From Candidatus Acidiferrum sp. (GTDB lineage: Bacteria; Verrucomicrobiota; Verrucomicrobiia; Limisphaerales; UBA8199), in contig DATMRF010000011.1 in the NCBI GenBank assembly GCA_035566435.1, forward strand, positions 26,878 to 90,877: a stretch of 64,000 nucleotides of DNA, written 5' to 3'. Of the stretch, positions 147 through 51,226 are shown piece by piece. Positions within the stretch are counted from its first letter, which is position 1; each line of letters opens with the position of its first letter. The notes under the pieces are model-generated. The model saw only the letters and a program-made list of their open reading frames with translations. It did not search any database and was not told where the DNA came from. The position numbers and the translations under genes were made by a program.

Positions 147-241
147 GTGATGCGTGAAACGTGAACCGTGCCGCGCGAAAGCGCCTGGCGGCGCCGCCAC
201 TTATTCCGCATCACGCTTCACGCACCGCGCCGTGTCACCTC
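147..241. repeat. Degenerate heptad array pair forming an imperfect hairpin (GTGNNNC family)
   Basis: 147-174 is GTGATGC GTGAAAC GTGAACC GTGCCGC. 207-241 is CGCATCA CGCTTCA CGCACCG CGCCGTG TCACCTC. Positions 151-164 pair with 211-224 (13 of 14, one bulge). Located just downstream of the phoH2 stop. Confidence 0.7.
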
Positions 242-9615: not shown

Positions 9616-9624
9616 GGGGTGCTC

Positions 9625-9709
9625 GAGTCTCAGGTCTCAAGTCCCAAGTTCGAAGTCCCGACACACAGGACGCGGGACTTGAGACCTTGGGACTTGAGGC
9701 TTGAGACGG
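9625..9709. repeat. Long hairpin built from two 5-unit heptad arrays (AAGTCCC family) between moxR and DUF58
   Basis: Left arm GAGTCTC AGGTCTC AAGTCCC AAGTTCG AAGTCCC (9625-9659). Right arm GGGACTT GAGACCTT GGGACTT GAGGCTT GAGACGG (9674-9709). Paired blocks of about 8, 13 and 8 bp. Confidence 0.75.
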
Positions 9710-9712
9710 AGT

Positions 9713-10693
9713 TCACGGGACGGGGACGGTGTTGAAGATTTTTTTGATGATCGCGTCTGTTGTTACCGCCTGGGCTTCGGCCTCATACGTGAGAATAATG
9801 CGATGGCGCAGCACGTCCGGACCAATGCTCTTGACGTCCTCGGGCGTCACGTAAGTGCGGCTTTGCAGCAAGGCCCAGGCCTTCGCGGCGAGTGTAAGGT
9901 AGATCGTCGCTCGGGGCGAAGCGCCAAACTGGATGAAATGTTTCACATCGAGTTTGTATGGTTCCGGTTTACGTGTGGCGAAGACGAGGTGAACGATGTA
10001 TTCGCGCACTTTTTCATCGACGTGAATCTGATCTACCAGTTTGCGAGTGCGCAGGATCTCCTCCAATTCGATCACCGGTTGCGTCCGGGTTTCCGGGGCG
10101 GTAAACGCCATGCGGTCGAGGATTTTTCGTTCTTCCTCGAACGACGGATAATCCAACAGCACTTTGAACATGAAGCGGTCCACCTGCGCTTCGGGCAGAG
10201 GGTAAGTGCCTTCCTGGTCGATGGGGTTTTCGGTGGCCAGCACCAGGAATGGCGAGGGCAGCGGCATGGTTTCGCCGCCCAGAGTGACCTGCCGCTCCTG
10301 CATGGTCTCCAGCAAAGCCGATTGCACCTTGGCCGGCGCGCGGTTGATCTCGTCCGCGAGCACAAAATTGGCGAACACCGGACCTTTGGTGGCGTGATAC
10401 TTGCCGTCCTGGGGACTGTAGATGAGCGTGCCGACGATGTCGGCCGGGAGCAGGTCAGGCGTGAATTGAATGCGGTGGAACGAGGCCTGGATCGCGGCGG
10501 CCAGGGTGCGGACGGAGAGGGTTTTGGCGAGCCCGGGCACACCTTCGAGCAGGACGTGGCCGTTGGCGAGCAATCCCACGAGCAACCGGTCCACCAATTG
10601 CTCTTGCCCGACGATCACCCTGCCAATTTCGCCCCGCAGCCTGGAAATCCAGGTTGCCGCCGCCTTCACTTGCTCGTCCAACGGTGTGCTCAT
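9713..10693 (-). CDS. MoxR-family AAA+ ATPase
   Basis: VIVGQEQLVDRLLVGLLANGHVLLEGVPGLAKT (Walker A), FLVLATENP and a typical MoxR length of 326 aa. Confidence 0.9.
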   Translation of the reverse strand: MSTPLDEQVKAAATWISRLRGEIGRVIVGQEQLVDRLLVGLLANGHVLLEGVPGLAKTLSVRTLAAAIQASFHRIQFTPDLLPADIVGTLIYSPQDGKYHATKGPVFANFVLADEINRAPAKVQSALLETMQERQVTLGGETMPLPSPFLVLATENPIDQEGTYPLPEAQVDRFMFKVLLDYPSFEEERKILDRMAFTAPETRTQPVIELEEILRTRKLVDQIHVDEKVREYIVHLVFATRKPEPYKLDVKHFIQFGASPRATIYLTLAAKAWALLQSRTYVTPEDVKSIGPDVLRHRIILTYEAEAQAVTTDAIIKKIFNTVPVP

Positions 10694-12707: not shown

Positions 12708-15700
12708 CTATTCCGAGCAAGCACGACATAGGTGGCCCTCTCGCGCTGCAAGGAAATACAGCCAACCTTCAGCGACCCGCCGCTGATAGATCCTCTCCAG
12801 CGCCCCGGCATACAACCTGAGTTGTGGCTCATACAGCTTTACCTTGTCCAGCAATTCCTTGGGTGCCACCTCATCTGTCTTAAAATCCACCAGCCAAATC
12901 TTCTGTGGCAGGATCACCGCTAAGTCTGCGACTCCCTGAACCACCACGAACTCGCGCGCCAGGCTAGGGCTGGCGGGCTCGCCCGTGACCCGAGCCAGTT
13001 CTTCTGGCGAGAAGCGCGCTGTAAACGCCAATTCACGCCCGACGAACTGCGCCTGGGCACGAATCCTTGAGCCGAGATCTGAGCTCCAAAACGCACTCAG
13101 GCCGTCGAAATCGAGCAACATGGCCTCTTCGGCGCTCAAAACGCCTTGCTCCTCGAGGCGCCGTGCTTCTGATTTGAGCTGGGTGACGGTTTCCGTTTGT
13201 GTAATCGCAACTCGTTCCAAAAACACATGATGTGCGTTTCCCACGTCCACTGCCGACGCCTTCGCGGCCGGCTCGCCCACGCCGCCTTTGACCTGCGACC
13301 TGAGACGTTGGACGTTAGCCTTGAGGGTTGAAACCCGAGACCGTGGTCCGAGGGCTACAGACAACTCCTCCCTATCGTCGGCCACCGCCCTTCGCCGGAG
13401 GGCCGAGACCGAGGTCTTCGCGGGATGCCGCGTGGCAGCCCCAAACGCGTATTGCCAGGTCAGGCGTTCCTCCAATTCCTGCCACACTCGCGGTGTCGCT
13501 ATGGGCTCGAGACCACCGGAACTTTCGTCGTTGATTGCGTTAAGCTCGAGCGTTGCCAACCTTGTTTCGTCGTGGATTGTCCACTTGAGCCCGGCGCTTT
13601 CCCCCTGTCTGGCACTCTCGGCCGCGGCGCCGGCCCGTTGTGAAAACCAGAGGCCCAGCCAGTCTGCGTAACTGCCGGCGGCCAAGAGTGCGTCGTTGGT
13701 CAGCTCGCCGTGCGGCTGCCACAGTTTTTCGAATTTGGACTCCGAAACCGCCCCGCTGAGCAACAGTAGGTCGCGCGCGCGGGTCATCGCCACGTACAAA
13801 AGCCGCAACTCTTCTCCCAGCAATTCCCGTTTCTGCCGCCTGCGCGCGAGCCAATATGGCAGGCTAGGGTAACGTTTGCCGGTATGCGGCGGCTTAATCT
13901 GCGGGCACAAGCCGTATTCCTCATCCAGAATAATCTCGGCGCGGAGGTCTGACAGGTTGAACGGTTTGCCTAAGTCCGCCACGACCACAACGGGGAATTC
14001 GAGCCCTTTGCTCTGATGAATGCTCATGAGGCGGACCGCGTTCTCCTCACCCGCCGCCGCCACTTCCGGCTCGCTCTCCGCCAGTTGCTGCGCGTCGATG
14101 AACCGCAGAAAGCGGAATAAGCCCTGGCGCTGGAATTGATCGAATTGCTCGGCCAGCCCAAGCAGGCGCCGGACGTTGGTCTGGCGCTGTTGGCCACGTG
14201 GCTGTGTCAACAACCAGTCCGTGTAGTGCGTATCCGTCAGCACGGCCTCTAAACAGCCAGAAAGCGACACTTGCCGCGCCAGCTGCCGCCACCGCGCGAA
14301 CCGGTCCAAAAACGTGCCCACCTTGCTGAAGGCGGACTCTGGACTATCCGCTTTGGGCTTTGGACTATTGGCCTCGTGCCATCGGACCAGCGCTATCCAA
14401 AAGCGCGTCTTGAGCGCTGTGCGACGGATGGCGGCCAGTTCGTTGAGAGTTAGGCCGACCAGAGGCGAGTGGAGCACTGCCAGCGCCGGCAGGTCCTGCA
14501 GCGGGTTGTCCAGCAACTGCAGGAGACTCAGCAAATCAGAGATTTCCAGATTCCGGTAAAAGCCGCCGCGTGCCACCTGCAAAGGGACGTCGAGCCGGGA
14601 AAACTCCTTTGCATAGCTCTCGGCCTTGTGGGCCGGCGCACGCAGCAGGATGGCCATATCGCGCCACTCCACTGGCCGGAATTGGCCGGTGCCCTCATCC
14701 CAAACCGGGTGGAGGTCCGACTTCAACTCGCACAAGCGCATCGCCACCAGCCGCGCTTCCTTTGCCGCTTCTTCCAAATCCCTCGCCTCAGCCAACGCCT
14801 CAGCCATCTCCGGGTCGCCGCCCTCCGACTCCCCGGCGCTCTTGACCCGCAAATGCAGTTCGACGCAAGGCGTGGCATTGGCAGCGGCGCTAAAGGCCTG
14901 GCGGTCCTGAGCGGCGCCAAACCTCAAGCGGGCCGTTTCGTCGTAAGACACTCCCCCGAGCTCCCGGCGCATCGTACAGGCGAACACCGAATTGATGAAA
15001 TCAAGAATTCCCTCACGGCTGCGGAAATTATCCGTCAGGGGAATGGCCCGGCCCCGGCCACCGCCCCACTTTTCCACATAGCCCTGGAAAATGCCCGGAT
15101 TAGCCAGCCGGAATCGGTAAATGCTTTGCTTCACATCCCCAACCAGGAAGCGGTTTGCGTGCGCTCCCTCGCGGCTGAGTGCCTCGATGATCTTGTCCTG
15201 CGCCGCGTTAATGTCCTGGTACTCATCGACGAAGACAAAGCGCAGTTTTTCGCGCCATTGCTGCGCGATTTTCGTCGGCCGATTGTTGCCGACGTCCCAC
15301 AACAGCCGGAGCGCTTGTTGCTCGAGGTCGTGGAAATCGACCACTCCCAGTTCGCGTTTCGCTTCGTTGAACGCCCCAGTGAATTCCTTGGCTAGTTCCA
15401 GCAGCGTGGCCATCTGCCCGCGCACCCAGGACCAGTCTTCCATCAAGGGGTCTGTGTCACCGGTCGCCGTATTCAGTGACTCGAGAAAACCGGCCTCGTC
15501 GAGAAACGCCTGGAGCGGTTTGAGTGATCCTGTTTTCGCTCCGCGAGGGCGATCCCTCGCCGCCGCCGAAATGGTTTCCAGGCAGGCGGCGGACTCTGGG
15601 CGGTTAGGTTGAAGCGAGAGGGCTTTCAGCGCGGCGGCGCATTTGACGGCCAGGTCATTTCTGGCCGCCTCTCGTTCCAACACCTGCAGCCAGCGGGCTC

Positions 15701-16352
15701 GCCAATCCGCCAGCGCCTGTAGCAGCCAGGGCTCCCACGCAGTGGGTTGGTTCGCTGCAAAGACGGCGGCCTGGCCGCGCAGCCAGCCTGCAGGGTCCGG
15801 CAGGGTCTGAGTGTAATGGTGAATCTTGAGCGCCAGGGTCCGAATCGCTTTGTCCCTTCCCCGTCCTTGCGTTTGGATGAGCTGCTGCACCGCCTCGGCG
15901 GCGCGGCCCCGGCCGGCATAATGCTTTTCCAATAGCCCGTCGAGTGTCTCCTCGGCCAGCAGTCGCCCCTCGTCCTCGGCCAGCACCGTGAATTGTGGGT
16001 CGAGGTCCAGCGCGTAAAAGTGCTGGCGCACGAGTTGGAGGCAAAAGCTGTGCAAGGTCCCGATGTGAGCGGTCTCGAACAATGCCAGTTGCTCCTGCCA
16101 GTGCGGTTCATGCGGCCGCCGCGCCAGCTCCTGTTCCAGGCGCGAGCGGATGCGCTGCCGCATTTCTGCGGCAGCCGCTTCGGTGAAGGTGACCATCAGG
16201 ATCTGCTCCAGCGAGGCGCGCGGCTGCTCGTGCAGCAGGCAGCGCAGGCAACGTTCCACCAGCGTTCGGGTTTTGCCGGTGCCGGCGCCCGCCACTACCA
16301 GCACGTTGCCCCGTTCGTTAATCGCCTGCTGTTGGGCCGCGGTTAGATTCAT
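12708..16352 (-). CDS. addA: AddA-type UvrD-family helicase-nuclease
   Basis: Motif I VVAGAGTGKT, motif II FVFVDEYQDIN, 1214 aa, C-terminal PD-(D/E)xK-like segment (VVVQGVADLAV...WLVDFKTDEV). Confidence 0.85.
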   Translation of the reverse strand: MNLTAAQQQAINERGNVLVVAGAGTGKTRTLVERCLRCLLHEQPRASLEQILMVTFTEAAAAEMRQRIRSRLEQELARRPHEPHWQEQLALFETAHIGTLHSFCLQLVRQHFYALDLDPQFTVLAEDEGRLLAEETLDGLLEKHYAGRGRAAEAVQQLIQTQGRGRDKAIRTLALKIHHYTQTLPDPAGWLRGQAAVFAANQPTAWEPWLLQALADWRARWLQVLEREAARNDLAVKCAAALKALSLQPNRPESAACLETISAAARDRPRGAKTGSLKPLQAFLDEAGFLESLNTATGDTDPLMEDWSWVRGQMATLLELAKEFTGAFNEAKRELGVVDFHDLEQQALRLLWDVGNNRPTKIAQQWREKLRFVFVDEYQDINAAQDKIIEALSREGAHANRFLVGDVKQSIYRFRLANPGIFQGYVEKWGGGRGRAIPLTDNFRSREGILDFINSVFACTMRRELGGVSYDETARLRFGAAQDRQAFSAAANATPCVELHLRVKSAGESEGGDPEMAEALAEARDLEEAAKEARLVAMRLCELKSDLHPVWDEGTGQFRPVEWRDMAILLRAPAHKAESYAKEFSRLDVPLQVARGGFYRNLEISDLLSLLQLLDNPLQDLPALAVLHSPLVGLTLNELAAIRRTALKTRFWIALVRWHEANSPKPKADSPESAFSKVGTFLDRFARWRQLARQVSLSGCLEAVLTDTHYTDWLLTQPRGQQRQTNVRRLLGLAEQFDQFQRQGLFRFLRFIDAQQLAESEPEVAAAGEENAVRLMSIHQSKGLEFPVVVVADLGKPFNLSDLRAEIILDEEYGLCPQIKPPHTGKRYPSLPYWLARRRQKRELLGEELRLLYVAMTRARDLLLLSGAVSESKFEKLWQPHGELTNDALLAAGSYADWLGLWFSQRAGAAAESARQGESAGLKWTIHDETRLATLELNAINDESSGGLEPIATPRVWQELEERLTWQYAFGAATRHPAKTSVSALRRRAVADDREELSVALGPRSRVSTLKANVQRLRSQVKGGVGEPAAKASAVDVGNAHHVFLERVAITQTETVTQLKSEARRLEEQGVLSAEEAMLLDFDGLSAFWSSDLGSRIRAQAQFVGRELAFTARFSPEELARVTGEPASPSLAREFVVVQGVADLAVILPQKIWLVDFKTDEVAPKELLDKVKLYEPQLRLYAGALERIYQRRVAEGWLYFLAAREGHLCRACSE

Positions 16353-16356
16353 CGGG

Positions 16357-16395
16357 AATTTGCGATTGCGATTTGCAATTTAGCATTTACAATTG
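16357..16395. repeat. Degenerate heptad array ATTTGCG family directly upstream of addA
   Basis: AATTTGCG ATTGCG ATTTGCA ATTTAGC ATTTACA ATTG, starting 5 nt from the addA ATG. Confidence 0.65.
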
Positions 16396-16479
16396 AGTCG
16401 CGTGAACCGAGTTGATCGCCCGTCGCAGGTTGTGGCAGCGCGTACTTGGGCGCAACGATGAAATGGATGCTCGGGTCTG

Positions 16480-17343
16480 ATGAAAATAAACTCGCTCATT
16501 CAAAAAATCGGTGCTCACGCCCCTTTCCTGGGAGGCAAAAGGCGGCATGCCATCGTGCCGCCCGCGTTGGGCGACCCGCTCCGGTTTCCCTATGGCCCCT
16601 TCCGCTTCCGCACGCGACTGGCAAAAGGCACTGAATACACCGTACTGGCCTCCCCGGACCTGCGCACCTGGAGTCCGACGTCGATGTCCGTCGCCAAAGA
16701 GGAAGTGGTCGAATATGTCGATTCCGAGGCCTTCAAGTTTACGTGCCGCTTTTACCGCATGCAGGTCCGGCAAGTGTTCTCGGCGAATGTCATCGGCTAT
16801 GCTTCCGTGTCCCTGCCGCCCGGTTTTTCCATGATCGCCAATCCTTTCGATACACCCCAAACTGTGGGTGAAACCTTCAAGGGCTGGCCCCAGGGCACGA
16901 CATTGAACCGATTCGACACGATGCTCTTTAAGCTCGTTGAGAACGATTTCAAAGACGGCAAATGGTCTAATCCTCACGAGAAACTCGTGCCGGGTGAAGG
17001 CGCGATTTTTTTTAATCCCACTTCTGATTACAAGTCGGCGAGCTTTGTCGGCGACGTCATTCAGGGAAGCCTCTCTGTCCCGATTCCGGCGGGCTTTTCG
17101 ATCCGCAGCGCGCTGGTGCCACAGCCGGGCAACCTGGCCGACGACCTACGCTTCCCAATCAGCAACGGGGATGTCATCCACCTTTTCGACCGCGAGCGGC
17201 AGAAGTACGTCCTGCACCCCTACCAGGACGGCCGCTGGACGGCCGGTCCACCCATCATCGGTGTGGGCGAAGCCTTTTGGGTCGCGAAAACCGATCCCGG
17301 GAACTGGAGCTACAATCTGGAAATCGGCGAAGCAGCGAGTTGA
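16480..17343 (+). CDS. Hypothetical protein with FYR-ending beta module + internally duplicated ~85-aa domain
   Basis: The N-terminal module YTVLASPDLRTWSP...CRFYRMQV resembles the C-terminus of the 29018 protein. It is followed by two copies of the pattern S(V)xxPxGFSxI...GxW...PGEG/A-FF/W. No signal peptide is visible. Confidence 0.6.
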   Translation: MKINSLIQKIGAHAPFLGGKRRHAIVPPALGDPLRFPYGPFRFRTRLAKGTEYTVLASPDLRTWSPTSMSVAKEEVVEYVDSEAFKFTCRFYRMQVRQVFSANVIGYASVSLPPGFSMIANPFDTPQTVGETFKGWPQGTTLNRFDTMLFKLVENDFKDGKWSNPHEKLVPGEGAIFFNPTSDYKSASFVGDVIQGSLSVPIPAGFSIRSALVPQPGNLADDLRFPISNGDVIHLFDRERQKYVLHPYQDGRWTAGPPIIGVGEAFWVAKTDPGNWSYNLEIGEAAS

Positions 17344-17371
17344 AAACCCTGAGGGTTCGTCGCTCCATCAC

Positions 17372-20300
17372 TCACTGAGTGGCGTGATTTACGCACTCGC
17401 CGGCCTTCTTCAGCGTTCGGTACTGATGCGTCCACGGCTCGATGCGGCAGATTGCCTGGTAAGCGCATTGGTCGCAGGCGACGGTCGTGCCTTTGCGGAA
17501 GGGCGCCACCTCGGCGGCGCCTTCGTAAATCCGCCGCCCCATCTGCTTCAAGTGCGCTTCGACGGAATCGAGCAACGCTTCGAATTCGGGCGTCGTCACG
17601 GCCTCGTGCGAGCTTTTGTTGATTCGCCCGTCCTTCGTGAGGCGATAATTAAACTGGTCGCCCTGCCGCGCCTCGGCCCGGCTGTCCAGTTGGCGCAATA
17701 ACCGTGCATCGAACCGCCCAGTGTGGCGATAGGCCAATTGTCGGGCTTCGTCGGCATTTTCCAGCGCGTCGCGCCGGTTCGCTTCGCGTTCGTACTTGCC
17801 GCGCAGGTTGACATAGAACACGCCTGCCGGCGCGAGCCGCGCGACGCCGAATTGCTCGTGGGGATTCGGCCACCGGCGCAGCACATTCAAATAGGCCAGC
17901 AACTGCAACTGCAAGCCATGCTGCAGGAACACTGCATCCAGTTGCTTTTGACTCGATTTGTAATCCACCACCACGCAGGACGCCGCCTCCCCTTCTCGGC
18001 ACAAATCGACCCGGTCGATCCGGCCGTGGAGGTGCAGTCGATGCACGCTGTCGAGCTCAAGACTCCAGGCAGGTGACGTGCCCGGATGCCCAAACGGCAG
18101 CTCCGCCGCCGTGGGGTCGAACCGGTACTGATGCCGCATCCAGCCGACCAGCGTTTCCACAAACTCCTCCAGCGACTCCGTCAGGATGCGGGCCATAAAC
18201 CTTGTTTCCTCACTCGCTTCGAGCAAGCCGTCGCGGTAACTCGCCCTCAGGCCCCGCGAGAGTGCCGCGATACGTTCGCGCGCCTCCGCCGGCGTGATGT
18301 CGCGCCAGCGCTTCCCTTCTTTCCGCAACTGCTCATGGAACAGCGCCAGCACGTCGTGCTGAAATGTCCCTTGTTCCTTGAGGTCCAGCTCGAAGCGCCT
18401 TCGCTCCTCCGCTCGCAAACCCGAGTGGACAAAAAACTTGAATGGGCAGGCGGCAAACTGCTCCATTCGGCTGACCGAAGTCCCAAGGACGGGTCCATAC
18501 AGGCTTTCCGCCATTTCGGGCGACAGCGACTCTTGCGGTCCCGGATTCTGAAAATGCCGCAATTGTTCGAGCACCGACGCCAGCGGCGGAATCGCGGCCA
18601 ATCGCTCCCAGCTCGTGATGCGTGATGTGTGATGGGTGATGCCAGCATCCGCTGTCGTCACTGACTCTCCACTGCAAACCTCAACCTGCGGTCCGTGGTC
18701 CTTGGTCCGTGGTCTTGAGGCTTGGAACTTGATACCTGAGGCTTTAAGCGCCGGCCCGATCAGTTCCGTCACATGCTCGCTTTCCCGCCAGTCCAGCGCT
18801 TTGGACTCGGTGTCGAACTCGAGTGATGGGAAGAGCCGCCGGACGTGTGCCAGGAAGGGCGATGGGTTGAGCGGCGTGCCGTGCGCGTCGCGATGAGCGC
18901 ACGTCAACACTAACCGGGCCCGCGCCCGGGTGCAGGCAATATACGCATAAAACCGTTCGCGGCCGAGTTGGTGGCGGGAGCTGGCCACGGCGGTGACGTT
19001 GTGTTTTTCCAATTCGATAAGGTCGGATTCCGTCAGGAGCACGCCAGGTTCGGGAGGCGCCGGAAAAACGGTCTCATTGAGGCCAAGCACCAGCGCCAAC
19101 TTGATGTCCGGGTTGCGCGAGCGATCGATGGCGCCGACGAGCACCTGGTCCAACGCCGGCGGAATGACTCCGACGGTGAGACTGGCCAGCCCGGCCTCGA
19201 GAATCGGCAGCCAGTCGCGGACGGTCAGCGCCTCGGCGGGGAAAGCCAATTCCACATTCTCCAGCCAGGTATTCATCTGTTCCCAAACAGCGGTGTGCAC
19301 CGAGTTGTCGATGGGCGATTCGGTGCTGGAGACGTCCGTGGCGGCCCACGCCTGGAGTTGCTGCTCGACTTCAAGGGCTTCCCAGAGCGCGCGCACCGCC
19401 GTTGCCAGTTGCGCGCCGGTCGGCTTATTTCGGCATTCGGCCATGGCCAGCGCGAGCCGCTGAAACGGCGGCATGATGCGCTCTTGCAGGCGGGCAACCC
19501 AATCGGTCAACTCGGGCTCGCCACTAATCACAATGGGTCTTTGCCACACCGCGCCCCGCCAGCCGCGGGCCAGCGCTTCGTTCTCCAGCCGGTCAATTTC
19601 GGCCTCCGCCACCCCGACCAGGCCGGTCTTCAGTACTGCGAACCAGTCATCCTGCTGCCATTGAAACGCGATGGTGCGCAGCGCGCTGCGCGCCAGTTCT
19701 GCCAACGGGTGGTGTGAAACCGACTTGCGCCGGTCCAGGAAAAACGGAATTCCATACCGTGAAAACACGCGTTGCAGGACCGAGTGGTACCCCTCCAGCT
19801 TCCGCACCATTACCGAAATCTCGCGATACCTTCCACCGGCGCGCACGTGTCGCAGGATTTCCCGCGCTGTCAATTTCGCTTCCTCCTCCGGCTCCACGCA
19901 CACCGCGACGCGCAGGCTCTGCCCCGGCCCGGCCATCTCCCCGGGCGGCGTCTCCGCACCCTGGTAAGGCTGCGGCTCGCCCCAATGCCGCTCCAAGTGC
20001 TGCAACGCGCCTTTCTCGGGAAACCGGCTCTGGCTGGGAATTCGCGACAGGGTTTCGGTGACCACCTCCACGCCTGCCAAACCGCCAAGCCGCTTCCGGC
20101 ATTGCTCCAGCGTTTTGCGGACCATCGACCAATGAGAAAGCCATGAGCTGTGTTTTCCCTCTACCCCCTCGACACAGAGTGCAACGGTCGCCCCATCGCA
20201 ATACGGCATCAGCGTCGCCAGCAACCCCAGCTCCAGCTGCGAGAATTCAGCAAACCCATCGACCCAAAGATGCTCAATCCGAACTTCCGACTTTGGACTT

Positions 20301-20995
20301 CGGACACGGGCTTTGAGACCTGGGACTGTGGACCGCGGACGGTGGACCGCGGACGGTGGACCATGCTCCTGGGCCGCTAATCCCGCATTTCCAAGCGCCT
20401 CCGCCGCCGTGGCCAACAAACAATCCACATCCTGCAAATCATGGGTTGCCAGCCAGTCCAGATACTCCTGGAGTAAGGTCGCGAGGTCCTGAAGCTTATA
20501 AGAAAGGCCTTCGACGTCTCGCACCCGCTCGGCGAGCTGGTTCAGCACTGCCGGTGTAAGTTGGCTGAGTTGCAACTCCCGCAGCACGAGGCTGAGCTGC
20601 CGTGCAAAGCCGTTCAGCCGCGCGCTGGCGCGGAACAACTTCAATTCGTTGCCCTTGCGGGTCAGCAAGGAGCGAAGCACCATCAGCCGGCCCTCCTCGT
20701 GGAGCATCGCCGGCGGCGCTTGGTGCAGGCGCTCGAAAATGAAATGAGCCAGGCGTTCGAACGACAAGATGTGCAGCCGAGTATAACCAGGGATTTCGGG
20801 GTCTGCCAGGAATTGCCGCTCCAACTGGTAGGTCGCCTGTTTCGGCGCTACCAGCACCAGTGGCGGCCCTTCCGCCGACGTTCTCAGCGCAGCGCGAATT
20901 CCCGCCAGACAATGGTAAGTCTTGCCGCTGCCCGCCGGGCCCAATAACAAACTCACTTCCACGCGCCATTTTTGCGAAAGGCCGCTCCAGCGCAA
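17372..20995 (-). CDS. addB: AddB-type helicase-nuclease subunit
   Basis: Walker A LLLGPAGSGKT, C-terminal nuclease motif VVVDYKSS and Cys cluster CDQCAYQAIC typical of the AddB Fe-S nuclease domain. First codon is TTG; GTG at 20962 is an alternative. Confidence 0.75.
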   Translation of the reverse strand: MRWSGLSQKWRVEVSLLLGPAGSGKTYHCLAGIRAALRTSAEGPPLVLVAPKQATYQLERQFLADPEIPGYTRLHILSFERLAHFIFERLHQAPPAMLHEEGRLMVLRSLLTRKGNELKLFRASARLNGFARQLSLVLRELQLSQLTPAVLNQLAERVRDVEGLSYKLQDLATLLQEYLDWLATHDLQDVDCLLATAAEALGNAGLAAQEHGPPSAVHRPRSTVPGLKARVRSPKSEVRIEHLWVDGFAEFSQLELGLLATLMPYCDGATVALCVEGVEGKHSSWLSHWSMVRKTLEQCRKRLGGLAGVEVVTETLSRIPSQSRFPEKGALQHLERHWGEPQPYQGAETPPGEMAGPGQSLRVAVCVEPEEEAKLTAREILRHVRAGGRYREISVMVRKLEGYHSVLQRVFSRYGIPFFLDRRKSVSHHPLAELARSALRTIAFQWQQDDWFAVLKTGLVGVAEAEIDRLENEALARGWRGAVWQRPIVISGEPELTDWVARLQERIMPPFQRLALAMAECRNKPTGAQLATAVRALWEALEVEQQLQAWAATDVSSTESPIDNSVHTAVWEQMNTWLENVELAFPAEALTVRDWLPILEAGLASLTVGVIPPALDQVLVGAIDRSRNPDIKLALVLGLNETVFPAPPEPGVLLTESDLIELEKHNVTAVASSRHQLGRERFYAYIACTRARARLVLTCAHRDAHGTPLNPSPFLAHVRRLFPSLEFDTESKALDWRESEHVTELIGPALKASGIKFQASRPRTKDHGPQVEVCSGESVTTADAGITHHTSRITSWERLAAIPPLASVLEQLRHFQNPGPQESLSPEMAESLYGPVLGTSVSRMEQFAACPFKFFVHSGLRAEERRRFELDLKEQGTFQHDVLALFHEQLRKEGKRWRDITPAEARERIAALSRGLRASYRDGLLEASEETRFMARILTESLEEFVETLVGWMRHQYRFDPTAAELPFGHPGTSPAWSLELDSVHRLHLHGRIDRVDLCREGEAASCVVVDYKSSQKQLDAVFLQHGLQLQLLAYLNVLRRWPNPHEQFGVARLAPAGVFYVNLRGKYEREANRRDALENADEARQLAYRHTGRFDARLLRQLDSRAEARQGDQFNYRLTKDGRINKSSHEAVTTPEFEALLDSVEAHLKQMGRRIYEGAAEVAPFRKGTTVACDQCAYQAICRIEPWTHQYRTLKKAGECVNHATQ

Positions 20996-26471: not shown

Positions 26472-27635
26472 TCAATGCCCCGGCGCGGAAACCCCTTCTG
26501 CCTCTGAACCCGTCTTGGCCTCTTTAGCCAGGACCCTGAGAGCTTCGTGTCGTTCCTTTTTCGGTTTTTTTGAAATGGCTTTGGCGGCGGCGTAATACTT
26601 TTCCAGGTCGCCTCCGTTTTGAGCGAGCAACCGGTCAAACCCTGGAACAAAGTCGTAATAAGCGGCGACTGAATTCAGGCCCGCATTATTCACCTGGTGG
26701 GCAAACCAGCCGTCGTATTCCGGGTCGCCGCCCCAGGCTGCTTTCAGCCGGGCGTATTCGTTTTTCATATCCTCAAGAACCGCTTGTTTTTGGCGCAGCA
26801 ATTGAGCCGCAGACACATCGTGGTTCTTTGAGGTTGCTTTAACTCTGACGCCTTGCGAGACCGCGTCGCCGTAGACAGCTTCGAGCCGCACGCGCGTTGC
26901 GATAACCAGGTGCACGAACTGGTCATTGCGGCGGAGGTGCGCCGCGTACTGATCCAGTTCGGCCGCAGTTCCATTAGTCTTAAGCCAGCGGCGCGCTCCC
27001 TCTTCTCCGACACTGGTCGCGAAGGCCTCGTTGAAATCCGTGTCGCCGTGCGCGAAGAGGCGTTGGTGCGCCAGTTCGTGGAAAACCGTCTCCGCGAGCT
27101 CAGCCTCAGAGTCGAAGAGAAAGGTACTAAGGGCCGGGTCTTTGAACCAGCCCAGCGTGGAGTAGGCCGACACGCCTCCCACCGAAACGTCATAGCCCTT
27201 CCTTCTGAGGTAACCGGCGTAATTGGTCGCACCCCGAAGGGAGAAATAGCCGCGGTATTCGAGGCTGCCGACCAACGGGTACCACCACGTCCGCGCTTGC
27301 AGCGAGAATTGCGGGGCCGCCTCGACGTTCCATACCACGAACGGCCGGTGGACATCGACGTATTTGCGGTAATGATCATCGACCGGGAGTTTTAACTCCT
27401 GTGCAGCAAATGCCCGCAGTCGTTCGAGCAAGTCTAACCGTTGCTTGAGCCGCGGGGGTGTGTGAGGGTCGTTCGTGAGTTTCAGGATGGACTGCTCGTG
27501 AGCAACCAGTTGGTATTGGCCTTTAATAGCCTGGCCGTAAAACTGGAGCGTATGGCAGCCTGACAGGGCGCCCACCGCCGCGACCAGCACTGCGCCAATC
27601 AACACCTTCTTCAGGCGCCTGCTTTTGAGTGACAT
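26472..27635 (-). CDS. Putative zinc aminopeptidase lipoprotein (PF10023-like)
   Basis: Lipobox ALSGC, HExxH motif VFHELAHQ, start at ATG 27635. Confidence 0.6.
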   Translation of the reverse strand: MSLKSRRLKKVLIGAVLVAAVGALSGCHTLQFYGQAIKGQYQLVAHEQSILKLTNDPHTPPRLKQRLDLLERLRAFAAQELKLPVDDHYRKYVDVHRPFVVWNVEAAPQFSLQARTWWYPLVGSLEYRGYFSLRGATNYAGYLRRKGYDVSVGGVSAYSTLGWFKDPALSTFLFDSEAELAETVFHELAHQRLFAHGDTDFNEAFATSVGEEGARRWLKTNGTAAELDQYAAHLRRNDQFVHLVIATRVRLEAVYGDAVSQGVRVKATSKNHDVSAAQLLRQKQAVLEDMKNEYARLKAAWGGDPEYDGWFAHQVNNAGLNSVAAYYDFVPGFDRLLAQNGGDLEKYYAAAKAISKKPKKERHEALRVLAKEAKTGSEAEGVSAPGH

Positions 27636-36514: not shown

Positions 36515-36540
36515 TCAGAGGGCGAGAGGGGCGTGGGGCC

Positions 36541-36580
36541 AGGTTGTCAGGTTTTCAAGTTTTCAGGTCATCAGGTAGCC
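36541..36580. repeat. Octamer array CAGGTTTT family upstream of cysT
   Basis: AGGTTGT CAGGTTTT CAAGTTTT CAGGTCAT CAGGTAGC. Contains the reverse complement of the 15-mer CCTGAAAACTTGAAA that is also found at 40502-40516. Confidence 0.65.
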
Positions 36581-40421: not shown

Positions 40422-40520
40422 GGGGGGTGGATTGATGGATTAGTGGATGGGTGGATTGTTGGAGTGATGGAGTGGTGGAGTGAGGCGTGGAACGTGAAAA
40501 ACCTGAAAACTTGAAACCTG
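40422..40520. repeat. C-free octamer array (TGGANNNN) followed by NNTGAAAA words between rrf2 and polX 3' ends
   Basis: GTGGATTGA TGGATTAG TGGATGGG TGGATTGT TGGAGTGA TGGAGTGG TGGAGTGAGG, then CGTGGAA CGTGAAAAA CCTGAAAA CTTGAAA CCTG. There is no C on the plus strand from 40422 to 40485. Confidence 0.7.
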
Positions 40521-42288: not shown

Positions 42289-42302
42289 ACGGACGGAAGA
42301 TA

Positions 42303-42400
42303 AAGTCCCAAGTCTCAAGTCCCAAGTCCAAAGTCGAACGTTCAAAGTCCACAGGCAACCGGCCGAAGTTTCAAGTTTCAAGTCTCAGGTCTCAGTTCCG
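42303..42400. repeat. 98-nt block in strict 7-nt register (AAGTCCC family), polX/thiD divergent spacer
   Basis: AAGTCCC AAGTCTC AAGTCCC AAGTCCA AAGTCGA ACGTTCA AAGTCCA, then a 14-nt linker, then AAGTTTC AAGTTTC AAGTCTC AGGTCTC AGTTCCG. Confidence 0.8.
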
Positions 42401-42452
42401 AGGCCGGGAGCGGGTTTTGCCATTGGGGCAACAGATGATTAGACTGGGGGCG

Positions 42453-43982: not shown

Positions 43983-45109
43983 AAGAGGCGATTCGGCGCC
44001 GAGCGCGGGAATTGGGGTTTGATGATTGCCGGGTCACCACAGCGGAGCGGCCAGGTTCTGCCCAGCAATTCGAGCGCTGGCTGGCCGAAGGCCAACATGG
44101 GGAGATGGGCTATCTGGAACGCAACGCGGTCAAACGCGTGGCCCCGGGTCAAGTGCTCGCCGGCGCGAAAAGTATCATTACGCTGGCGGTGAGCTACGCG
44201 GGGACGGAGCCTCAAGTTGCAAGCTTCAAGTTCCAAGTTCCAAGTCCCAAGTCCCCGGAACACGCGACACGCAACACGCATTACGGTCCTTTGGGGCGCG
44301 GAGTGGTGGCGCGGTATGCGCGGTATCGGGATTACCATGAGGTGATGGGTGAGCGATTGAGGGAACTAAGGCGGTTTGTCGACCAAGTTGGCGGGGAAGG
44401 GACCCGGTCACTGTGGTATGTGGATACCGGGCCGCTGTTGGAACGCGATTTGGCGCAACGGGCGGGGTTGGGGTTTGTTGGCAAACACACGAACCTGATC
44501 AGCCGTCAGCTTGGCAACTGGATTTTTCTGGCAGAGATTCTGACGACGCTGGAACTGGAGCCAGACCTGCCGGAGAAGAACCGGTGCGGTTCATGCACCC
44601 GGTGCCTGGAGGCGTGCCCGACCGGAGCGCTCCCCGCTCCCTTCCAGCTCGATGCCCGGCGCTGCATCTCCTATCTGACCATCGAGCTAAAAGGTCCAAT
44701 TCCAATCGAGCTTCGGCCGGCGATTGGAAACCGGATTTACGGCTGCGACGATTGCCTGGCGGCGTGTCCGTGGAACCGGTTCGCGCGCGAGGGTCGGATG
44801 ATGAAAGCCCACGCGCGAACGGATTTGGCCGGGCCGGACCTGTTGGAATTACTTTCGATAGACGAAGCTGAGTTCAAACGGCGATTCGCTGGAACGCCGA
44901 TGGTTCGGGCCAAACGCCGCGGGTTGGTGCGGAACGTTTGCGTGGCTCTGGGCAATATCGGCGATGAGACGGCGCTGCCGGGCCTGGAACGAGCGGCGGG
45001 AGACCCCGAACCGTTGATTGCGGAGCACGCGCGGTGGGCGATGGAACGGATACGGGACCGGAAGGGGGCGGAGCGTGAAGCGTTGGAGCGTGACGGGGGA
45101 AGCCGTTAG
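43979..45109 (+). CDS. queG: Epoxyqueuosine reductase
   Basis: Two 4Fe-4S motifs CGSCTRCLEACPTGA and CDDCLAACPWN, plus C-terminal HEAT-like ALGN repeats. Carries an in-frame heptad-array insert at 44214-44283. Confidence 0.85.
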   Translation: MKEAIRRRARELGFDDCRVTTAERPGSAQQFERWLAEGQHGEMGYLERNAVKRVAPGQVLAGAKSIITLAVSYAGTEPQVASFKFQVPSPKSPEHATRNTHYGPLGRGVVARYARYRDYHEVMGERLRELRRFVDQVGGEGTRSLWYVDTGPLLERDLAQRAGLGFVGKHTNLISRQLGNWIFLAEILTTLELEPDLPEKNRCGSCTRCLEACPTGALPAPFQLDARRCISYLTIELKGPIPIELRPAIGNRIYGCDDCLAACPWNRFAREGRMMKAHARTDLAGPDLLELLSIDEAEFKRRFAGTPMVRAKRRGLVRNVCVALGNIGDETALPGLERAAGDPEPLIAEHARWAMERIRDRKGAEREALERDGGSR

Positions 45110-51120: not shown

Positions 51121-51226
51121 GGGATGCGTGATGCGTGAAACGTACGAGGTTGAAACGTTAAAAGGTTAAAACGGAGAAAACGTTAAACGCAATTCTTTCA
51201 CGTTTCACGCATCACTCTCACGCTTC
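51121..51226. repeat. Heptad/octamer arrays forming a 16-bp perfect stem between convergent genes (possible bidirectional terminator)
   Basis: GTGATGCGTGAAACGT (51128-51143) pairs perfectly with ACGTTTCACGCATCAC (51200-51215). The 56-nt loop is itself made of GTTAAAAC-type words. Confidence 0.7.

Follow-up and report, generated by a model that had tools for sequence, protein, structure and literature searches.

Heptanucleotide arrays held in frame within addB probably encode disordered loops in a verrucomicrobial order

Introduction

The gene for AddB, subunit B of the AddAB helicase-nuclease, carries tandem seven-nucleotide units inside its reading frame in Candidatus Acidiferrum sp., a member of the Limisphaerales (NCBI GenBank assembly GCA_035566435.1). 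How does a conserved repair enzyme come to hold such repeats, is this genome alone in doing so, and what would the repeats encode? We addressed these questions in a 64,000-nucleotide (nt) stretch of contig DATMRF010000011.1 (forward-strand positions 26,878 to 90,877), hereafter the window, whose numbering is used throughout, and in addB loci of related genomes. With some reserve, we judge it likely that the repeats are microsatellites of heptanucleotide units whose translation gives disordered linkers in permissive loops between AddB domains, and that two of four ancestral hot spots have expanded in the window's clade.

Heptanucleotides are described as the most abundant class of long simple sequence repeats (SSRs) in most bacterial genomes, and their proposed cause is polymerase slippage, in connection with a 7-nt contact of the polymerase (Mrazek, Guo, Shah 2007, as summarised in PMC4679880 and PMC4692102).

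Results

Three heptad arrays lie within an open addB frame

The gene is on the minus strand, and its longest open reading frame (ORF) runs for 1207 codons from a TTG at 20995. The true start is probably the GTG at 20962 (codon 12), which aligns in register with the M or V starts of homologues, so AddB probably has 1196 amino acids (aa). The predicted protein matches the Pfam families ADDB_N (8e-52) and PDDEXK_1 (6.5e-37) and aligns with B. subtilis AddB (PDB 3U44_B, E 5e-99), while a Foldseek search with an AlphaFold2 model returned the AddB chains 4CEJ_B (E 3.5e-47) and 3U44_B as best folds. The N-terminal helicase-like domain has a Walker A motif, GPAGSGKT, with residues shared by at least 90% of homologues. 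The C-terminal PD-(D/E)XK nuclease domain has four iron-sulfur (Fe-S) cysteines, one upstream plus CxxCx5C, and C850, C1174, C1177, C1183 and D1011-Y-K are invariant in an alignment of 32 AddB sequences. Domain content, nuclease and Fe-S residues, structural similarity and adjacency to addA, the partner subunit gene, all point to the same gene, which we assign from its sequence as addB.

A first-pass annotation of the window had placed three array blocks in this frame, and we found all three at those coordinates, within the one open frame (A and D are hot spots defined below; lag-7 identity is the match of each base to the base seven positions on, and TRF is Tandem Repeats Finder):

17372–20995, minus strand: addB, AddAB helicase-nuclease subunit B (ORF and translation, Pfam, PDB, Foldseek).
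20281–20364, minus strand: hot spot A array, 12 heptads, aa ~211–239 (lag-7 identity, TRF, heptad parse).
18690–18745, minus strand: hot spot D array 1, 8 heptads, aa ~751–769 (lag-7 identity, TRF, alignments, predicted structure confidence).
18643–18689, minus strand: spacer between the site D arrays, 47 nt, non-repetitive, encoding ..VEVCSGESVTTADAG.. (sequence, translation).
18615–18642, minus strand: hot spot D array 2, 4 heptads, aa ~785–794 (lag-7 identity, TRF).

Both peptides quoted in that annotation agree with the translation: HGPPSAVHRPRSTVPGLKARVRSPKSEVRIEH at aa ~212–243 and KFQASRPRTKDHGPQVEV...ITHHTSRITS at aa ~757–795. On the coding strand the site A units read ATGGTCC, ACCGTCC, GCGGTCC, ACCGTCC, GCGGTCC, ACAGTCC, CAGGTCT, CAAAGCC, CGTGTCC, GAAGTCC, AAAGTCG and GAAGTTC, and by our tally GTCC ends nine of the twelve. 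Site D array 1 reads AAAGCCT, CAGGTAT, CAAGTTC, CAAGCCT, CAAGACC, ACGGACC, AAGGACC and ACGGACC, and array 2 reads GCATCAC, CCATCAC, ACATCAC and GCATCAC. The arrays that had been counted as 12 and 8 heptads are there, but their middle units are degenerate and TRF calls only the cleaner cores; the statement that the site A block is 84 nt, exactly 28 codons, holds only for the boundaries as drawn.

Identity at lag 7 was 47/77 in the site A array against 20.2 expected (sd 4.7), 32/49 in site D array 1 against 12.9 (sd 3.7) and 18/21 in array 2 against 5.5 (sd 2.2), where the expectation is the window-wide mean; the background is 26%, and the three arrays reach 61–86%. Their z values are about 5–6 and only 0.05–0.17% of window positions equal them, while identity at lags 3 and 6 stays at background. 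TRF called 18614–18642 (x4.1), 18690–18714 (x3.6), 20283–20305 (x3.3) and 20330–20362 (x4.7), as well as a 14-nt higher-order repeat within site A (20323–20362, x2.9, 96% matches); neither TRF nor the period scan gave a period-7 signal in the spacer. The blocks have the tandem structure of heptanucleotide microsatellites, with at least three head-to-tail 7-nt units above chance. The window's addB arrays contain GG, and no GGG tract on either strand.

The arrays are identical in independent assemblies

Sequences matching the window came from soil metagenomes, and the taxon names of homologues put the organism in Verrucomicrobiota, order Limisphaerales, as Pedosphaera-like. Both array sites were matched with 0 differences and 0 gaps by a 23.9-kb contig of one run (X1) and by separate contigs of a second (X2) from a different sample and study. 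The first-pass annotation had allowed that resequencing might expose assembly errors; two independent metagenome assemblies give the arrays letter for letter, which indicates that they are not such errors. Two further runs (X3 and X4) hold a strain about 96% identical, in which the arrays are intact with substitutions only and no indels; two of these, 18628 T>C and 18635 G>C, turn the GTGATGC array into a perfect x4. Across eight runs and two organisms (X1–X4, X29, X30, X40 and X44) no array indel was seen between strains in assembler contigs, which hide minority variants.

Two deviations were noted. High-depth unitigs of X3 and X4 have one extra base (C after 20346) and, at 20362, a loose end that continues as CGCGGACG; both probably stem from another locus with a similar array. 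A contig of X40, at depth 6 against about 20, joins positions 10564 and 10644 of a related locus (L015), skipping 79 nt that include the site A array; this length is not divisible by three.

Arrays recur at four sites of addB across the order

We collected 80 further addB loci from species-representative genomes, all metagenome-assembled genomes (MAGs) of Verrucomicrobia subdivision 3 or Limisphaerales type. Period-7 arrays dominate these 1.39 Mb of related loci, with 151 against 6–43 for the other periods from 4 to 12, and addB holds in-frame heptad arrays in 47 of the 81 loci. When placed onto the window AddB numbering, the arrays fall at hot spots A (aa ~198–243, 40 loci), B (aa ~340–363, 24 loci), C (aa ~552–568, 27 loci, often as four perfect units) and D (aa ~749–797, 9 loci). 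In the window the second and third of these are:

19907–19978, minus strand: hot spot B loop, aa ~340–363, arrayless in this genome (mapping of 81 loci, predicted structure confidence).
19292–19342, minus strand: hot spot C loop, aa ~552–568, arrayless in this genome (mapping of 81 loci, predicted structure confidence).

Judged from these sequences, in-frame addB arrays are a feature of the whole order Limisphaerales with four recurrent hot spots, and the window's addB appears as a member in which arrays have expanded and partly decayed at A and D, with none left at B and C. The first reading of this locus, repeat DNA inserted or expanded in a conserved repair enzyme, is supported; the feature is not peculiar to this genome.

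All addB arrays of the related loci are in frame. No frameshift at an array was found in the consensus sequences of 82 related loci, the sole frame change (L004) lying at aa 66–75, clear of any array. Units are diverse (AATCCGC, AACTCCG, AAAATTC, TCAACCT, CGTCAAT, AAAGTCC and others) and encode 7-residue periods such as SAIRNPQ, SELRTPN and KIQNSKF. Array positions persist between AddBs that are only 48–60% identical, with perfect units. L001, the closest homologue at 75% identity, carries at site A a cleaner array, AGTCTCA x3 then AGTCCAA x4, which is 7 aa, or three heptads, longer than the window's. In one relative (L051, 10598–10674) site A holds an inverted pair within the reading frame, GAAGTGC x3 followed by CACTTCN x4, so hairpin-capable array pairs also occur in coding sequence.

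Array sites are length-variable, probably disordered loops

The first-pass annotation had proposed alignment to AddB orthologues as a check, and the array sites emerged as lineage-specific expansions and the most length-variable stretches. In the 32-sequence alignment of best homologues the two array sites of the window are the main length-variable stretches, and short Pedosphaera-type AddBs (1118–1134 aa) have no insert at either. In a 73-sequence alignment from the genome loci, the commonest length of site A is 22 aa (32 sequences), against 48 aa for the window; at site D the window has 54 aa, where 20 aa is the most frequent length and 24 aa the median. Distant orthologues with non-repetitive sequence at the same positions had been named as evidence to the contrary. 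B. subtilis AddB has only ~10 residues at site A against ~42 in the window, in favour of an expansion. Its sequence at site D is non-repetitive, similarly long and only weakly aligned. In most relatives the array constitutes the basal loop and is not an addition to it; the window's clade stands out by having expanded two of the four further.

The surface-loop reading agrees with the AlphaFold2 model, which predicts coil with predicted local distance difference test (pLDDT) values below 50 at both sites. Such segments include 200–224, 337–343, 546–552 and 722–785 (GTG-start numbering); the first and last are sites A and D, with confident helices or strands on both flanks, and all four hot spots fall on coil of this kind.

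Arrays turn over rapidly under an apparent translation filter

Two relatives whose AddBs are 95% identical outside the array sites (L013 and L015) carry TCGACGC and TCAACCT units, respectively, at site A, both spanning 22 aa, and their site D segments are 55 and 20 aa long. In the sequences compared, the arrays turn over much more quickly than the remaining protein does. At site C two others (L023 and L031) are one SAIRHPP apart, exactly 7 aa or three heptads. Among AddB pairs at least 75% identical, which are not independent of one another, site lengths differ by a multiple of 7 aa more often than expected at C (13 versus 6) and D (19 versus 9.9).

The coding strand of addB arrays is G-poor (15%) and rich in A and C. 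If inverted, 43 of 104 arrays would hold stops, and of 60 arrays that are stop-free either way, 44 are more hydrophilic as found (mean Kyte-Doolittle -1.07 vs -0.14); S, P, Q, N, K and R abound in the predicted peptides. As far as sequence tells, array polarity fits a translation filter of no stop in any frame and a hydrophilic peptide, and such a filter would explain both the G-poor, A/C-rich coding strand and the in-gene polarity. No RNA runs containing the addB gene were found.

The same units recur between genes of the window

Intergenic arrays had been said to share the vocabulary of addB, and pattern counts far over expectation bear this out. A three-unit AGTCC-NN heptad pattern has 29 matches in the window against 3.4 expected, clustered at 9626–9686, 42304–42356 and 44229–44260 as well as in addB and addA, and a GTGATGN pattern has 13 against 0.39. 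With a stringent threshold of at least 16/21 lag matches, the period scan of the window found 10 tandem regions at period 7 (0.1 in shuffles), 4 at period 6 (0.1) and 2 at period 8 (0.3). The main AGTCC-type arrays outside addB, each found by TRF, period scan and pattern, are:

9621–9707, no strand assigned: inverted pair of AAGTCC-type heptad arrays, intergenic between divergent genes.
42300–42402, plus strand: AAGTCCC / AAAGTCC / AAGTTTC heptad arrays, either between divergent genes or at their 5' end.
44212–44287, plus strand: CAAGTTC / CAAGTCC then AACACGC heptad arrays.

The first of these uses the vocabulary of addB site A and forms a ~40-bp hairpin when folded (-61 kcal/mol, z = -7.6), and site D array 2 shares its unit family with the GTGATGC intergenic arrays. 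In addA, weaker in-frame heptads occur on the minus strand at 14328–14366 and 13289–13318.

In-frame heptads are not confined to addB

In 161 arrays we counted 87 units, AATCCGC being seen 10 times. Unit sharing is 24% within a locus and 13% between loci (at most 1 mismatch, small numbers), and addB arrays have units in common with neighbouring arrays of their locus only weakly more often than background. Single genomes use one unit in addB and in other genes (AACTCCG in L046, CCATCTT in L022). An exact search of metagenome contigs for (AATCCGC)x4 gave at least 120 loci, and 0 of the 120 listed was an addB. Of 136 arrays among the matches listed, 57 sit well within ORFs of at least 250 aa, with 44 of the 57 in the AATCCGC sense, and the 56 host ORFs have diverse Pfam domains, including PSD1, PSCyt domains, radical SAM and sulfatase, with arginyl-tRNA synthetase, GcpE and DNA polymerase III alpha subunit as further host families. 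Several of these loci (L083–L202) have inverted (AATCCGC)n pairs 50–150 nt apart; the host genes include typical planctomycete and verrucomicrobial families. We saw no conserved flanks, target-site duplications or associated genes around (AATCCGC)n arrays, nor a larger mobile element.

Array density is 0.33 per kb in addB, 0.034 in other long ORFs of the same loci and 0.157 in the remaining DNA, a comparison biased by the choice of addB for having arrays and by the orthology of its 82 copies; addA has ~0.055 (3 strict arrays in 15 addA copies). Periods 6 and 9 show no comparable excess in addB. The idea that addB is uniquely targeted was rejected, since ascertainment and orthology confound the comparison and arrays occur in many other gene families. 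The spread of (AATCCGC)x4 over gene families suggests that in-frame heptads are a general habit of these bacteria, with AddB one array-rich host.

Discussion

The findings suggest how a heptad repeat could live inside an enzyme. We propose that a repeat class pervading the genomes of Limisphaerales (Pedosphaera-like) has translated copies hosted by AddB loops. Three heptads (21 nt) would be read in all three frames, giving a 7-residue peptide period because 7 is not a multiple of 3. An array would persist within a gene when its net length keeps the frame, its unit is stop-free in every frame and its peptide is soluble; arrays would grow, shrink and homogenise through slipped-strand mispairing or local duplication, with selection purging frame-breaking and hydrophobic results. 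We infer slippage as the generator. In the window's clade, A and D would have been enlarged by new arrays beside older, decaying ones. The array peptides are presumably present in AddB and selectively near-neutral, serving most likely as disordered linkers only, and the enzyme itself would remain intact.

Several observations weigh against this account. The structural model is moderate (mean pLDDT 66, predicted template modelling score 0.51), and sites A and B show no excess of length differences divisible by 7 aa. Copy numbers do not follow a geometric distribution: there are 205 perfect period-7 runs of 2 copies, 27 of 3, 29 of 4 and 6 of 5, with a bump at four units, and (AATCCGC)n arrays peak sharply at 31–33 nt in the form (C)AAT(CCGCAAT)x4(C). 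In many arrays all four units are perfect copies whose sequence changes from one close relative to the next, and because a single-unit step would frameshift addB, homogenisation needs three-unit steps, paired compensating steps or conversion by other arrays. A unit seen at one addB site in one genome can occupy a different site in another. Two further features fit plain slippage poorly: array unitigs reach 4–25 times the flanking depth and branch into many alternative continuations, and intergenic arrays are often inverted pairs with very stable hairpins.

These difficulties favour, in part, another explanation, which we regard as unlikely but deserving of weight: the arrays may be functional nucleic-acid elements of fixed size, about four units, acting as protein binding sites at 7-nt steps or as structure-forming DNA or RNA, and they would sit in addB loops as the only places in the gene to tolerate them. 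The four-unit bump, the sharp (AATCCGC)n peak amid random flanks, the intergenic hairpins, the limited and recurrent vocabulary and the persistence of addB positions with perfect units between distant AddBs all speak for this. A "preference for four units" is also described for heptamers of Xanthomonas and Nostoc, GGGAATC and GGGGA(T/C)T (Rehm et al. 2015, PMC4692102). [quoted passage not shown] Heptads (AATTGCA / AATCGCA) also lie at 16357–16394, immediately upstream of the addA start codon (16352), a position that recalls the TAACTGA repeats of Beggiatoaceae and cyanobacteria, which form 2–6 direct copies often near-upstream of starts (MacGregor 2015, PMC4679880). Translation of the TAACTGA repeat as a peptide of 7-aa period has been considered too; unlike the arrays here, it is a single unit with forward stop codons, a proposed role in translational regulation and no conserved placement in a conserved enzyme. 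Three further points count against nucleic-acid elements: units vary between sites of one gene and between close relatives, which makes a sequence-specific reader unlikely; the window's arrays are degenerate yet retained; and a translation filter accounts for in-gene polarity.

Two related candidates were rejected. The heptads are not taken to be the lineage's Chi sequence lying in the gene of the Chi-reading subunit, as units vary between sites and close relatives. Nor are G-quadruplexes a general explanation: besides the many units without G-runs, some have a single G, and the window's arrays have no four tracts of at least three Gs.

We give only a slim chance to a bolder form of these ideas, in which the heptad arrays are a dispersed family of fixed size (about four units, 31–33 nt), actively installed or homogenised through conversion or some unknown enzyme, that repeatedly overwrites the four AddB loops and loops of many other proteins; this process, or single-unit slippage, could make addB switchable at several sites.

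It also seems improbable that the arrays are copies of dispersed repeat families spread or overwritten by gene conversion or some unknown insertion mechanism. The recurrence of one unit at different addB sites across genomes, and in addB and other genes of one genome, would follow from such spread, as would the depth and branching of array unitigs, the fixed array size and the exchange of one unit for another at constant length between 95% identical AddBs. Against it stand the lack of conserved flanks, target-site duplications and associated genes, and a sharing of units within loci that is only a little above that between loci; moreover, convergence under a stop-free and hydrophilic filter could itself yield recurrent units.

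Phase variation is a different matter: gain or loss of a 7- or 14-nt unit at any of the arrays would frameshift addB and reversibly switch AddAB off, and recombination or the degradation of foreign DNA would then be altered in part of the population. We consider this quite improbable. Its attraction is that non-triplet repeats in an ORF are the classic design, including the heptanucleotide tracts of Haemophilus influenzae, which like the arrays here are non-triplet and lie within an ORF, where slippage would shift the frame (PMC2651432). Concerted evolution of four-unit arrays implies repeated unit loss and gain, each a frameshift; addB has up to four arrays and a density above that of flanking long ORFs and addA, and the window has the near-perfect 14-nt repeat. 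The known heptanucleotide switches, however, have 13–38 units in surface or restriction-modification genes, with off alleles among strains; here the tracts are 4–5 units in a repair enzyme, with no off allele in the 82 consensus sequences. The degeneracy of the window's arrays lowers slippage, the enrichment in addB is confounded by gene choice and orthology, and the lack of array indels in the contigs of eight runs is weak both ways, as contigs hide minority variants.

An artefact of assembly, chimerism or chance low complexity is a negligible prospect: tandem repeats are a known source of assembly errors and Logan unitigs break at perfect arrays, but the sequence is identical in two independent runs and intact as a variant in two more, homologous arrays stand at the same sites in dozens of independent MAGs and the array statistics are far over chance.

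Returning to translated microsatellites in AddB loops, the closest parallel is the tandem repeats of Borgs (Schoelmerich et al. 2023, PMC9879509), which are likewise fast-evolving, frame-keeping, disordered and of low complexity, at like positions in homologues. Borg units within ORFs are all divisible by three and the host is an archaeal extrachromosomal element; here the unit is 7 nt (14 nt at the higher order), a single-unit change would be a frameshift, and the host is a bacterial chromosome. Long prokaryotic heptanucleotide SSRs, as Mrazek 2007 is summarised in PMC4679880 and PMC4692102, share the tandem 7-nt unit; they are mostly intergenic and coding repeats tend to multiples of three, in contrast to the in-frame arrays here, whose positions are conserved across an order. 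Literature searches pairing heptanucleotide repeats with Planctomycetes or Verrucomicrobia yielded no case of in-frame heptads in conserved loops of housekeeping enzymes. Heptanucleotide repeats as such are known in bacteria; what we found no description of is their in-frame presence at conserved positions of a housekeeping enzyme in this lineage.

If translated as proposed, a non-triplet microsatellite read in three frames would build linkers with a 7-residue period, an unusual route to protein disorder for bacteria, in AddB at four loops common to a whole verrucomicrobial order. For annotation and alignment, array segments are best handled as fast-evolving, DNA-driven inserts and not as homologous protein sequence. 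For mutation biology, perfect four-unit arrays that change sequence at constant length, in a gene that any one-unit step would frameshift, are hard for simple slippage. Repeat-mediated switching of repair and recombination machinery also becomes possible as a mode of gene regulation, and should the arrays be merely tolerated junk, they would offer a natural experiment on dispensable AddB loops.

Neighbouring features of the locus

Downstream of addB on the same strand lies its partner gene:

12708–16352, minus strand: addA, partner subunit (Pfam UvrD-helicase and UvrD_C).

The 1-kb gap between the two genes (16353–17371) holds an opposite-strand ORF of 287 aa at 16480–17343 that matches no Pfam family; L001, the closest relative, has a gap of just ~130 nt. 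Within addA, the heptads at 14328–14366 form an AGTCCAA-type run at aa ~663–676, and those at 13289–13318 a weak run of 2+2 units near aa 1012. GTGATGC-type inverted pairs occur at 147–228 (plus copy at 147, minus copies at 204–228) and 51121–51215 (plus copy at 51121, minus copy at 51198). In a sliding-window period scan period 8 ranks second in enrichment, and intergenic period-8 arrays lie at 36535–36577 (CAGGTTTT-type) and 40426–40486 (TGGATTGA-type, with 16- and 24-nt higher order).

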